Source: Escherichia coli (GTDB taxonomy: Bacteria; Pseudomonadota; Gammaproteobacteria; Enterobacterales; Enterobacteriaceae). Taken from it: a stretch of 64,000 bases of DNA. Made by a program: the position numbers and the translations under genes. Under the pieces are notes generated by a model. It did not search any database, had not been told where the DNA came from, and worked only from the letters and a program-made list of their open reading frames with translations. This document shows, one piece after another, positions 28,236-33,625 of this stretch (position 1 is its first letter; each line of letters opens with the position of its first letter). Where the stretch lies: NCBI RefSeq assembly GCF_003334785.1, contig NZ_QOWV01000001.1; one strand, given 5' to 3'.

Positions 28236-28370
28236 TAGCAAAACCGCAATATCGGGATAACGCTACAGGAGAAGGCGATTGATCTATTTTCCTGAAACAA
28301 GGTGAATATTCAAAAACTCCTGTCAAATTGCCTTTTGCCCTGAAAAATGCATAGTCAAATATCTGTTTTA

Positions 28371-28407
28371 ACTAATTGGCGTTGCAGTACATGCAACGCC
28401 AATTAGT
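28371..28407. terminator. 13-bp perfect-stem hairpin between convergent ydbL and feaR
   Basis: AATTGGCGTTGCA-gtaca-TGCAACGCCAATT; no clear U-tract, so either a terminator or REP-like structure. Confidence 0.4.
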
Positions 28408-29312
28408 TAGCGGAATTTACGTCGATACTCGCCTGGCGTCATCCCAAAGCGTTGCTTAAATACCGTTGAAAAATGACTCTGGTCAGAAAATCCCCAATGA
28501 AAGCCGATGCCTGCCAGTTTTTCATCATCTGCGGCATGGCGAATCGCATCTGCACAAAAATCGAGACGACGGTTACGAATATATTGCGCGACTACCAAAC
28601 CTTTATCGGCAAACATTCGGTACAAACTACGTACTGACATACCTGTCTCTCCGGCTATCCACTCCGGGCGTAATATCTCTTCGCGAATATTATCGTCTAT
28701 CAACGTAACCACTTTTTGAAACTGACGTTCACGACGAGGTTGAACAGATTCCCGCTGATGAAGTACCGGGCGCAGCAGACACACCATCGCCTGTAGCGCA
28801 GCTTCACTTTCTGTTTCAGAAAGTGCCGGATTATTCATGCTCTCCTGTAACAGGCGATGACTGAGTTGCACCATGGGTAAGTCAGCGTCCAGTCTTTCTG
28901 CGCAGACAGGTTTTTGATGGGGAAAATATTGTTCCAGCAGAGTGCGTGGCAAAAGTAATGAAATCTGTTTAGAAGACTCCTGCCAGTAAAGCGAACAGGG
29001 GCGTGAGGCATCGAGTAACGTAATATCGCCAGCGCCAATCTGCACCTGACGCTCATCCTGCTCCATTATTGCCTGACCACTAAGCTGAAAAACGGTGTAA
29101 AACCAGGCATCGTCGCTGCCTTTTACTTCCTGCCAGGTGCGGGATAAATTCACCCCGCTGGTTGTCACGGTACTCAGCTTTAGTCCTTTGGCAAAATGCG
29201 TGTCCAGTACACCCGTGTAACGCTCAGTCAGCAGGCGTCCGGTAAAATTTCCGCATACCTGATTGATTTGGGAAAGCCATTGCTGAAACTCATTATCCAC
29301 TGCGGGGTTCAT
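28407..29312 (-). CDS. feaR: AraC-family activator FeaR (phenylethylamine/phenylacetaldehyde catabolism)
   Basis: 301-aa ORF with C-terminal AraC-type HTH; divergent from feaB. Confidence 0.9.
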   Translation of the reverse strand: MNPAVDNEFQQWLSQINQVCGNFTGRLLTERYTGVLDTHFAKGLKLSTVTTSGVNLSRTWQEVKGSDDAWFYTVFQLSGQAIMEQDERQVQIGAGDITLLDASRPCSLYWQESSKQISLLLPRTLLEQYFPHQKPVCAERLDADLPMVQLSHRLLQESMNNPALSETESEAALQAMVCLLRPVLHQRESVQPRRERQFQKVVTLIDDNIREEILRPEWIAGETGMSVRSLYRMFADKGLVVAQYIRNRRLDFCADAIRHAADDEKLAGIGFHWGFSDQSHFSTVFKQRFGMTPGEYRRKFR

Positions 29313-29431
29313 GGCACGTTTTCGCTCTGTGAAATGTATTTTTATTGTTGCATTTGTGTTGCAATAAACGAAGCTAATGAGCCTGACTATAGGAAATAAG
29401 TCTTGTCAGGCATAGAGACATAAGCGGTTAT

Positions 29432-29477
29432 TGTCACGATTTGCGGAGCTTGTCACAGCTGACAAAGCGAATGTCAC
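29432..29477. promoter_or_regulatory. Three direct TGTCAC repeats spaced about 20 bp in the feaR-feaB divergent promoter region (candidate FeaR sites)
   Basis: TGTCAC at 29432, 29451, 29472; spacing of about two helical turns is typical of AraC-family direct-repeat sites. Confidence 0.35.
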
Positions 29478-29547
29478 AGCGAAAAAAGTGACTTTTCTTG
29501 TCGCTGCGTACACTGAAATCACACTGGGTAAATAATAAGGAAAAGTG

Positions 29548-31047
29548 ATGACAGAGCCGCATGTAGCAGTATTAAGCCAGGTCCAACAGTTTCTCGATCG
29601 TCAACACGGTCTTTATATTGATGGTCGTCCTGGCCCCGCACAAAGTGAAAAACGGTTGGCGATCTTTGATCCGGCCACCGGGCAAGAAATTGCGTCTACT
29701 GCTGATGCCAACGAAGCGGATGTAGATAACGCAGTCATGTCTGCCTGGCGGGCCTTTGTCTCGCGTCGCTGGGCCGGGCGATTACCCGCAGAGCGTGAAC
29801 GTATTCTGCTACGTTTTGCTGATCTGGTGGAGCAGCACAGTGAGGAGCTGGCGCAACTGGAAACCCTGGAGCAAGGCAAGTCAATTGCCATTTCCCGTGC
29901 TTTTGAAGTGGGCTGTACGCTGAACTGGATGCGTTATACCGCCGGGTTAACGACCAAAATCGCGGGTAAAACGCTGGACTTGTCGATTCCCTTACCCCAG
30001 GGGGCGCGTTATCAGGCCTGGACGCGTAAAGAGCCGGTTGGCGTAGTGGCGGGAATTGTGCCATGGAACTTTCCGTTGATGATTGGTATGTGGAAGGTGA
30101 TGCCAGCACTGGCAGCAGGCTGTTCAATCGTGATTAAGCCTTCGGAAACCACGCCACTGACGATGTTGCGCGTGGCGGAACTGGCCAGCGAGGCTGGTAT
30201 CCCTGATGGCGTTTTTAATGTCGTCACCGGGTCAGGTGCTGTATGCGGCGCGGCCCTGACGTCACATCCTCATGTTGCGAAAATCAGTTTTACCGGTTCA
30301 ACCGCGACGGGAAAAGGTATTGCCAGAACTGCTGCTGATCACTTAACGCGTGTAACGCTGGAACTGGGCGGTAAAAACCCGGCAATTGTATTAAAAGATG
30401 CTGATCCGCAATGGGTTATTGAAGGCTTGATGACCGGAAGCTTCCTGAATCAAGGGCAAGTATGCGCCGCCAGTTCGCGAATTTATATTGAAGCGCCGTT
30501 GTTTGACACGCTGGTTAGTGGATTTGAGCAGGCGGTAAAATCGTTGCAAGTGGGACCGGGGATGTCACCTGTTGCACAGATTAACCCTTTGGTTTCTCGT
30601 GCGCACTGCGACAAAGTGTGTTCATTCCTCGACGATGCGCAGGCACAGCAAGCAGAGCTGATTCGCGGGTCGAATGGACCAGCCGGAGAGGGGTATTATG
30701 TTGCGCCAACGCTGGTGGTAAATCCCGATGCTAAATTGCGCTTAACTCGTGAAGAGGTGTTTGGTCCGGTGGTAAACCTGGTGCGAGTAGCGGATGGAGA
30801 AGAGGCGTTACAACTGGCAAACGACACGGAATATGGCTTAACTGCCAGTGTCTGGACGCAAAATCTCTCCCAGGCTCTGGAATATAGCGATCGCTTACAG
30901 GCAGGGACGGTGTGGGTAAACAGCCATACCTTAATTGACGCTAACTTACCGTTTGGTGGGATGAAGCAGTCAGGAACGGGCCGTGATTTTGGCCCCGACT
31001 GGCTGGACGGTTGGTGTGAAACTAAGTCGGTGTGTGTACGGTATTAA
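29548..31047 (+). CDS. feaB: Phenylacetaldehyde dehydrogenase FeaB
   Basis: ORF 29545..31047; ALDH-family catalytic Cys region ([10 protein letters not shown]) and ELGGK motif; AAGGA Shine-Dalgarno before ATG 29548. Confidence 0.9.
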
Positions 31048-31104: not shown

Positions 31105-33378
31105 TCACTTATCTTTCTTCAGCGCCCCTAGCGTTGGCGTTTCGTCAAAGAAGTTCCATGGTTTCAGCAGAGTATGTACCCATTCGGTCGGCATAATCGG
31201 CCACTCTTCGGCGCGGGCCACATGTGTGGTGCCGGTGGTCATCCAGACAACGGCGTCGGTGTTGTCCAGCGACTCGTTATCCTTACTGTATTGTCCAAGA
31301 CCGGTGTCATGAGTAGAACGGTTCGGATATTTGCCTTCCGGGAAACGCTCGCCAGGATGATAACGCGTTACCCAGAGCTGCTTGTCCATAAAGCTTAAAC
31401 GATGATAGATCCACTCGTCCGGCGCGAACTGGGCACCTTTTGCTACCGGGTGAGTACCACCTGCATAAGGAATAATTTGATAGGAAACCGGATTGCCCAT
31501 GCGGTTCTCTTTGTTCGGGTTACTCAACAGACGAATCGTGCCCGGATCAAATTTCTGTGCGGCATCCTGTTCATTGCCGATGTTGTACTGATTAACTTGC
31601 ATGGTACTGGTGCGTGGGCCACCGGCAGTATTCGGTTTTACCACTGGGTCCATCGCCACCAGGCTGTTATTCTCGCCATCTACATCCAGATCGAGGCGGA
31701 AATTATAAATATGTTGGTGTGTAGTACCCACGATATTGTGATCGATAAGCGTGCCGTAGCGCGTGTCATCTTTCGCCGTCTCATCGTGCATGGTTTTCGC
31801 TTTAACACCTTTCACCGCTTCGATGCCCGTAGCACCGGCATCGATGCCAATAGTGCCGTTTTCATGGAAGATCCAGTCAAAAATGTAGTCATAGTTACCC
31901 ACTGTACTGATCCAGCGCACCACTAACTCCCGGCGTTCGGTACTGACGTTGGGCTGGCCCATTTCCTGATGCTTATACTCCGGCCCGGCATAACGTTCAA
32001 ATACCGCGATAGCGCGAGGGATCTCCATCGGCACGCCAGTGTAGTCGGCGATGGTTTCATTAAGGAGCACTGCGTTAGACGGGGCATCTTTACCACGAGC
32101 AATTGGTGAGGTTAGCGTGCCCATACCGTAGTCACCAGAGTCCAGATACGCTTTAAAGTACCAGCCAATATCAGGATCACCGTAAGGCACAATCATGCCG
32201 CCGAGAGAACCTTCGTACATGACTTTGCGTTTGGTGCCATTGTCGTTATAAGTCACGGTGGAGATCATCGGCCCGACGCGAGAGTTCATGCTGAGGTGAA
32301 AATCCCAGTTCCGCCAGTGAATCATATCGCCAGTAATGGTGTAATTTTTACCTTCAGGCTCAATGATTTGCATAGGCTTAACTGCCGGAGCAACGCGGTC
32401 ACGGCCATCAAATGGGCGTGCGGTCATTGGCACCGGAACTACCGGACCTTCTTCAATCTTAACGATTTTTTTCTGTTCTAAATCAACGACCGCCACCAGG
32501 TTTTCGATGGGATGTGCCCAGTAGTTGCCATCACCGACATCAAGATAGCTGATGACTTTGAGCAACCGGGCATCTTGTTTCAGGCCATCTTTACCATCGA
32601 AATAACCTACGGTCAGCGGCGTGGTAATCACTTTTTTCGCATCAGTAATACCGCGTTTCTTCACGGCAGCGGCAAATTCTTCACTGTTGTTAATAATGTT
32701 CTGCACACTGGCGAAATCATCCAGCAACACCATACCGTGGGCGTCTTTAATGGGTTGCCAGGAGAGCAGTTTGTTGTTTTGCAGATCCACCACCGCTTCG
32801 ATGATATGTTTGCCGTCGAGCATAATGACGTCGGCTTTGCGCGGCTGGTCAACCGGTTTGTTTTCCAGCGCAAACGCCCAGACAGCTTCTTTATCTGGCG
32901 GTAGCAGGGAGATCTCAGTAAAACGGGTATTGGGTTTGAAGTCCGCGGAAGCTTTAACAATTTCAACGGCCTGTTTAATTTCGTCCGCAGTTAGCGCATT
33001 AAGTGGGTGAGGGCGCTTTTCTACCTGAAAGGTTTGATCCAGCCCGGACTGGAAAACATCGTTAATAAAGGTGTCAGAAACCCAGGCTTTATTGTCTTTC
33101 ATCACTACCGGTACTTGCAGTGCCAGAGGCTGACCATTAACAATTGCTGTTTGCGCACCAGGCTTCACTTTCACGTACGCGCCATCTTTAATCAGGGTAA
33201 AGAGCTGGGCGTAGTCGTCCCACTGCACATCGGCACCAAATTCTTTAAGCGTTTTATCCATTGGCACCATATGCGCTTCACCACCGTGGGCAAATACCGG
33301 CGCTTGCCAGGCGAAACTTAAGGCGACTGCCAACGCCAGGGTTGTTTTACGGGCAGAATACAGAGAGGGGCTTCCCAT
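31105..33378 (-). CDS. tynA: Periplasmic copper/topaquinone primary amine oxidase TynA
   Basis: ORF 31105..33414; start at MGSPSLYSARKTTLALAVALSFAWQAPVFA (signal peptide), 757 aa. Confidence 0.9.
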   Translation of the reverse strand: MGSPSLYSARKTTLALAVALSFAWQAPVFAHGGEAHMVPMDKTLKEFGADVQWDDYAQLFTLIKDGAYVKVKPGAQTAIVNGQPLALQVPVVMKDNKAWVSDTFINDVFQSGLDQTFQVEKRPHPLNALTADEIKQAVEIVKASADFKPNTRFTEISLLPPDKEAVWAFALENKPVDQPRKADVIMLDGKHIIEAVVDLQNNKLLSWQPIKDAHGMVLLDDFASVQNIINNSEEFAAAVKKRGITDAKKVITTPLTVGYFDGKDGLKQDARLLKVISYLDVGDGNYWAHPIENLVAVVDLEQKKIVKIEEGPVVPVPMTARPFDGRDRVAPAVKPMQIIEPEGKNYTITGDMIHWRNWDFHLSMNSRVGPMISTVTYNDNGTKRKVMYEGSLGGMIVPYGDPDIGWYFKAYLDSGDYGMGTLTSPIARGKDAPSNAVLLNETIADYTGVPMEIPRAIAVFERYAGPEYKHQEMGQPNVSTERRELVVRWISTVGNYDYIFDWIFHENGTIGIDAGATGIEAVKGVKAKTMHDETAKDDTRYGTLIDHNIVGTTHQHIYNFRLDLDVDGENNSLVAMDPVVKPNTAGGPRTSTMQVNQYNIGNEQDAAQKFDPGTIRLLSNPNKENRMGNPVSYQIIPYAGGTHPVAKGAQFAPDEWIYHRLSFMDKQLWVTRYHPGERFPEGKYPNRSTHDTGLGQYSKDNESLDNTDAVVWMTTGTTHVARAEEWPIMPTEWVHTLLKPWNFFDETPTLGALKKDK

Positions 33379-33625
33379 TATTAACCTCGTCAGATGTTGT
33401 GTTCTTGTTAGCAACCGCGCTCTGTGGGCGGTTTAGTCAGGTTCACATTATCAGTACTGATGCAAAGGGGATTGCCTGCACCTGCCAGGTTGTTTGGCAG
33501 GTGTGCCAGCTTTTCATACAGTGGATGCCCTGAAAATAGATGTACACATCATGCATAATGTGACAACGTCACAAAACTTAGTGAAATAAAAGGGCAACTA
33601 TTCGCCGTTGCCCTTCATTCACCGA

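Follow-up and report, generated by a model that had tools for sequence, protein, structure and literature searches.

The window, a stretch of E. coli DNA of 64 kb that was analysed as a whole, carries the divergent genes feaR and feaB and, in addition, tynA (Table 1). FeaR activates both tynA and feaB (PMC4640556). Over 29327-29562, the part that was compared, the intergenic feaR–feaB stretch is identical to that of K-12 MG1655, with no differences. Between the two divergent genes three copies of the hexamer TGTCAC lie on the plus strand, at 29432-29437, 29451-29456 and 29472-29477 (repeats 1, 2 and 3), as an earlier note on this DNA had recorded. The same note had called the copies evenly spaced, which they are not, the intervals being 19 bp and then 21 bp. 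It had also pointed to a related TTGTCA upstream. This sequence is indeed present at 29403-29408, but it is not conserved and is altered already in a divergent E. coli.

Table 1. Genes and sequence features of the feaR–feaB–tynA region, in window coordinates
Feature	Position	Strand	Remarks
feaR, AraC/XylS-family activator	28407-29312	-	annotation in E. coli genomes
repeat 1, TGTCAC	29432-29437	+	probably outside the FeaR operator
TTGCGG element	29441-29446		4 bp upstream of the distal half-site
distal (promoter-far) FeaR half-site, predicted	29451-29466	+	TGTCAcagctgacAAA, contains repeat 2
proximal FeaR half-site, predicted	29472-29487	+	TGTCAcagcgaaaAAA, contains repeat 3
feaB -10 hexamer, inferred	29509-29514	+	TACACT; TAGACT in most orthologs
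feaB, phenylacetaldehyde dehydrogenase, regulated gene	29548-31047	+	ATG at 29548; annotation
tynA	31105-33378	-	other FeaR target within the window
tandem FeaR operator at tynA, predicted	33472-33508	-	TGGCAcacctgccAAA-caacc-TGGCAggtgcaggCAA

No enrichment of the hexamer was seen in the window, where 27 copies were counted on both strands against 29.4 expected. Hexamer triplets on the same strand within 46 bp are common in this DNA: 10 were found in the window, compared with about 2.5 per dinucleotide shuffle. Consequently, the TGTCAC cluster alone is weak evidence, and the case for a function depends on conservation and on the second target promoter, that of tynA. Within the species, no match to window 28300-29700 was found in about 1200 of 5426 complete E. 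coli genomes, and in 3280 of the 4214 matching genomes at least 80% of this query was covered in one place. In several E. coli genomes that are identical apart from this, an IS1 element lies under the match to this segment. The genomes with no match or with only a partial one indicate that the feaR–feaB locus is variably present or disrupted in E. coli.

For the analysis of conservation, 14 feaR–feaB intergenic regions were used, that of E. coli and those of 13 other taxa, in which FeaR shares 64-82% identity with the E. coli protein. These taxa were Pseudocitrobacter (two species), Pluralibacter, Kluyvera, Raoultella, Klebsiella oxytoca, Enterobacter (two), Trabulsiella, Scandinavium and three more. 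A contig scan for FeaR returned four true FeaR loci (one from E. coli and three from other genera) and one unrelated AraC-family match; the remaining feaR loci were retrieved through exact matches to the protein. Where the orthologous loci were examined, feaR was found to diverge from a 499-aa Aldedh gene with a gap of about 230 bp between them; in one locus (L012) the Aldedh gene is cut by the contig end.

A search with TGNCA-N8-[A/C]AA on the plus strand gave exactly two matches per intergenic region in all 14 taxa. The interval between the two units was 21 bp throughout, and the distance from the start of the proximal unit to a TA(G/C)ACT -10 element was 37 bp in every case. No insertion or deletion was observed inside this two-unit/-10 module among the 14 taxa, and the flanks at 29410-29430 and 29490-29508 have diverged almost completely. 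In E. coli both units, TGTCAcagctgacAAA at 29451-66 and TGTCAcagcgaaaAAA at 29472-87, fit the strict form TGNCA-N8-AAA. The distal half-site fits TGNCA-N8-[A/C]AA in all orthologs, and the TGTCACAG of repeat 2 is invariant. The proximal half-site likewise fits in 14 of 14, as TGTCA in 11 taxa and TGACA in 3, and in three taxa the last C of the hexamer of repeat 3 is replaced by G. The third base of the motif behaves as a true N, being T in TGTCA, A in the TGACA of three feaB promoters and G in the TGGCA of tynA. From this comparison the predicted functional unit is a 16-bp bipartite half-site and not the TGTCAC hexamer, the final C of which is dispensable. The two-turn direct-repeat architecture of AraC-family activators, which the earlier note had invoked, is borne out by repeats 2 and 3 with their 21-bp period in all 14 orthologs.

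A tandem operator of the same kind was found upstream of tynA, where the bipartite unit known from feaB occurs twice with a 21-bp period. The distal sites of the two promoters have TGNCA...CTGMCAAA in common. Enterobacter cloacae and Trabulsiella have in common with E. coli an invariant sequence at tynA, TGGCA-N3-CTGNCAAA-N5-TGGCAG-N2-GCAGGCAA, and across these three genera the tandem block is the only strongly conserved part of the tynA upstream region. The proximal copy reads CAA, not AAA, in all three. When both strands of the 64-kb window were searched, the tandem pattern was present in two places only, in sense orientation upstream of feaB and of tynA. By chance about 0.01 occurrences would be expected, a somewhat flattering figure because the relaxation to [A/C]AA was chosen after the tynA and Kluyvera sequences were known. 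The E. coli tynA promoter responds to FeaR from Klebsiella aerogenes (PMC11542736), in agreement with an operator that is recognised across genera.

A weight matrix derived from the 14 feaB 37-bp blocks only placed the E. coli tynA site 9th among 127,928 positions (z = 4.0); in the E. cloacae and Trabulsiella loci the tynA sites were outside the top four. When ungapped 37-mers from upstream of feaB and of tynA in E. coli were compared in a motif-agnostic way, the best match was 21/37, which falls outside the operator and was equalled in quality by 191 of 500 shuffles. Thus, the information common to both operators is confined to the sparse skeleton of TGNCA, A-tract and 21-bp period, and the failure of the feaB-only matrix at the other tynA sites indicates that much of the conservation of the feaB block is specific to feaB. 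Taking the fixed module and the tynA pair together, repeats 2 and 3 very probably begin two 16-bp half-sites, arranged as a direct repeat, that form the FeaR operator of feaB. A further observation concerns the tynA promoter, in which a GATAAx -10-like hexamer lies 35 bp from the proximal unit in E. coli, 40 bp in E. cloacae and 41 bp in Trabulsiella (window 33445-33472; L016 2090-2125; L019 1890-1925). Either another hexamer serves as the tynA -10 element, or this promoter is geometrically less constrained than that of feaB with its fixed 37 bp.

At feaB, the -10 positions T, A, A, C and T are invariant in the 14 taxa, and the proximal half-site ends 21 bp before this element. With a 17-bp spacer the inferred -35 hexamer is AAGTGA at 29486-29491, a match at 2 of 6 positions that shares 2 bp with the half-site. 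A promoter scan revealed no consensus sigma-70 promoter in the region, as is expected if the promoter is activator-dependent. FeaR combines an N-terminal ligand-binding domain with a C-terminal domain that contains two helix-turn-helix motifs. Precomputed Pfam assignments for FeaR and its orthologs comprise PF14525 (AraC_binding_2), PF12833 (HTH_18) and PF00165 (HTH_AraC). The centres of the TGNCA box and the A-tract are 12 bp apart, about one helical turn, and a domain with two helix-turn-helix motifs reads patches roughly one turn apart; hence, the bipartite unit fits such a domain. Aldehydes activate FeaR to bind the tynA promoter, PtynA (PMC11542736). The aromatic aldehyde made by TynA acts as the effector. 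In the mechanism that we propose, FeaR with this aldehyde bound would place one subunit on each half-site, both on one face of the helix. Within a subunit, TGNCA would be read by one helix-turn-helix and the A-tract, roughly a turn further downstream, by the other. FeaR at the proximal half-site, abutting or overlapping a very poor -35 element, could then recruit RNA polymerase in class II fashion.

The FeaR motif does not account for one conserved element of the region, TTGCGG. Its TTGC is unchanged across the 14 taxa, and its GG almost unchanged. There is some chance, although we judge it unlikely on balance, that TTGCGG, perhaps together with the partly conserved repeat 1, constitutes a separate, undescribed control element specific to feaR–feaB. 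Such an element might be a CRP-like site, at about -71.5, for a second regulator and overlap the distal half-site, or it might give FeaR an additional contact upstream. If true, it could explain a different response of feaB and tynA to carbon and nitrogen limitation despite their common operator. One concrete form of a second regulator, cAMP-CRP control of feaB and/or feaR, would act through a CRP-type site at 29442-29457, TGCGG-N6-TCACA, with repeat 2 supplying the TCACA half, and would thereby account for the conservation of TTGCGG. The 16-bp core agrees with the CRP consensus TGTGA-N6-TCACA at 8 of 10 positions, and its centre at 29449.5 corresponds to -71.5 relative to the inferred feaB +1 (29521), a canonical class I position. 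Zeng and Spiro also reportedly described, in 2013, carbon-limitation control in this system and a difference in behaviour between feaB and tynA, and TTGCGG is absent from the three tynA promoters. However, both non-consensus bases, C at 29444 and G at 29446, are conserved, contrary to selection for CRP binding. The right half of the CRP-like sequence coincides with the TGTCA box of the FeaR site, so that CRP and FeaR would compete. We give CRP control through this sequence a slim chance, and even then it would be an additional function that does not displace FeaR binding at repeats 2 and 3.

The earlier note had regarded all three hexamers as FeaR half-sites governing feaB, and had named conservation across feaR–feaB promoters as a check. 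For repeats 2 and 3 the proposal holds, given their retention in 14 of 14 orthologs, their fixed distance to the -10 element and the pair at tynA; for repeat 1 it does not. At the position of repeat 1, TGTCAC is exact in only 4 of the 14 (E. coli and three other taxa), TGTCGC occurs in 3, TATCAC in 2 and unrelated sequence in 5. Its mean column conservation (0.70) is under that of the whole intergenic region (0.74). The E. coli context, TGTCAcgatttgcGGA, does not fit TGNCA-N8-AAA, having GGA instead of AAA downstream, and the relaxed motif TGNCA-N8-[A/C]AA fits repeat 1 in none of the 14 taxa, nor does an A-tract follow in any of them. That repeat 1 is nevertheless a third FeaR site, contributing cooperativity or a link to the divergent feaR promoter, could draw on the five near copies beside the four exact ones, and on a minus-strand sequence, TGACAagctccgcAAA (29455-29440), which also fits the motif and is directed towards feaR. 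Yet the interval of 19 bp sets repeat 1 roughly 70 degrees out of phase with repeat 2; the repeat is absent in Kluyvera, Raoultella, Klebsiella, Trabulsiella and one more taxon, in all five of which the two-site module is intact; and no counterpart was found at the three tynA promoters (E. coli, E. cloacae, Trabulsiella). The minus-strand match reads AAT at its position in 5 of 14 taxa, and since TGACAagctccgcAAA shares its TGACA with the distal site, joint occupancy of both is impossible. A three-site operator is accordingly very improbable. With a two-site operator formed by repeats 2 and 3, repeat 1 would be a lineage-specific chance copy lying outside it.

Pho boxes are direct repeats of the TGTCA type with an 11-bp period. 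PhoB ChIP-seq gave a weak peak in the feaR/feaB intergenic region, and feaR RNA was up about 3.4-fold in a phoB deletion; the accompanying MEME search covered only 100 bp around the peak centre and left out the TGTCAC repeats (PMC10294691). The repeats resemble Pho boxes as TGTCA(C/T)-type direct repeats, and PhoB binds somewhere in this intergenic region, but that they are half-sites for PhoB as the reported feaR repressor has hardly any probability, because a PhoB weight matrix derived from the remaining 58 sites of PMC10294691 gives all three -8.5 to +0.2 bits in either half-site register, where real sites reach at least 6.9, because their spacing is 19 and 21 bp and not 11, and because the peak centre (K-12 1447326, window 29355) is 77-122 bp off the repeats. 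A palindrome in E. coli, TTGTCA-N4-TGACAA (29450-29465), was weighed as a possible binding site for a dimer of some different protein, and was likewise rejected: in 10 of the 14 orthologs it is not palindromic, the right arm being AGACAA, GGCAAA, GCACAA, GCAAAA or CGACAA.

Several other sequences of the region were noted alongside the operator. The minus-strand sequence TGCAACAcaaaTGCAACA (29363-29346) repeats directly every 11 bp and belongs to the most conserved intergenic blocks in the 14 taxa. Its centre, 29354.5, falls exactly on that of the PhoB ChIP-seq peak, and it scores 8.3 bits with the PhoB matrix, compared with 5.9 for the MEME-called site (29334-29317, minus strand). Judged from these features, TGCAACAcaaaTGCAACA may be the true PhoB site for control of feaR, or may serve a different response regulator in that control. 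A second conserved block, GACTATAGGAAAtAAg at 29385-29401, contains on the minus strand TATAGT (29393-29388), which would make a good -10 element for feaR; no recognisable -35 accompanies it. The block has the form ATA-N9-TAT in six taxa and ATA-N9-TCT in E. coli, and ATA-N9-TAT is the NAC consensus. Nitrogen control of feaR is reportedly mentioned in the abstract of Zeng and Spiro from 2013, and the block may relate to it. Upstream of the tynA operator, ttgtgacgttgtcacATTATGCATgatgtgtacat (33545-33570, minus strand) comprises another TGTCAC and an ATGCAT core that resembles the NsrR half-site AANATGCATTT; GTTGCATTT at 29348-29356 in the feaR–feaB region is similar to this NsrR-like sequence. 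NsrR is said to regulate tynA and feaB, according to Rankin et al. in 2008.

The FeaR site reportedly given by Zeng and Spiro in 2013 is TGNCA-N8-AAA, occurring as two copies at the tynA and feaB promoters. Direct binding of FeaR to it, and failure of activation once the site is mutated, were reportedly described there as well. We take repeats 2 and 3 to be that site, in the same organism; with respect to the published operator of E. coli K-12 they offer nothing different, the sequence being the same, and repeat 1 and TTGCGG lie outside that motif. The two-repeat FeaR operator is already described for exactly this sequence, and the present observation is a rediscovery, trimmed from three repeats to two. 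The comparative analysis leads independently to this motif and copy number, placed on repeats 2 and 3. The repeats themselves carry no new biology; possible by-products are the invariant TTGCGG and the better candidate for the PhoB site. Comparative genomics confirms that across at least nine named enterobacterial genera the two-unit operator keeps a fixed sequence, a fixed spacing and a fixed -10 distance, which makes it useful for builders of FeaR/PtynA biosensors and for regulon annotation.

AraC at I1-I2 of araBAD and XylS at Pm are class II sites of AraC/XylS-family activators. The predicted feaB operator is similar to both in having two bipartite half-sites, directly repeated every 21 bp and each suited to a domain with two helix-turn-helix motifs, and in ligand-dependent activation; its proximal half-site would likewise abut or overlap a weak -35 element. 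AraC has a distal looping site, araO2, whereas no sign of such a site was seen at feaB. The recognition sequence also differs, TGNCA-N8-AAA for FeaR as opposed to TGCA-N6-GGNTA for XylS and the I half-sites of AraC. Unlike XylS and AraC, FeaR has as its effector an aldehyde that is the product of the first enzyme of the pathway.
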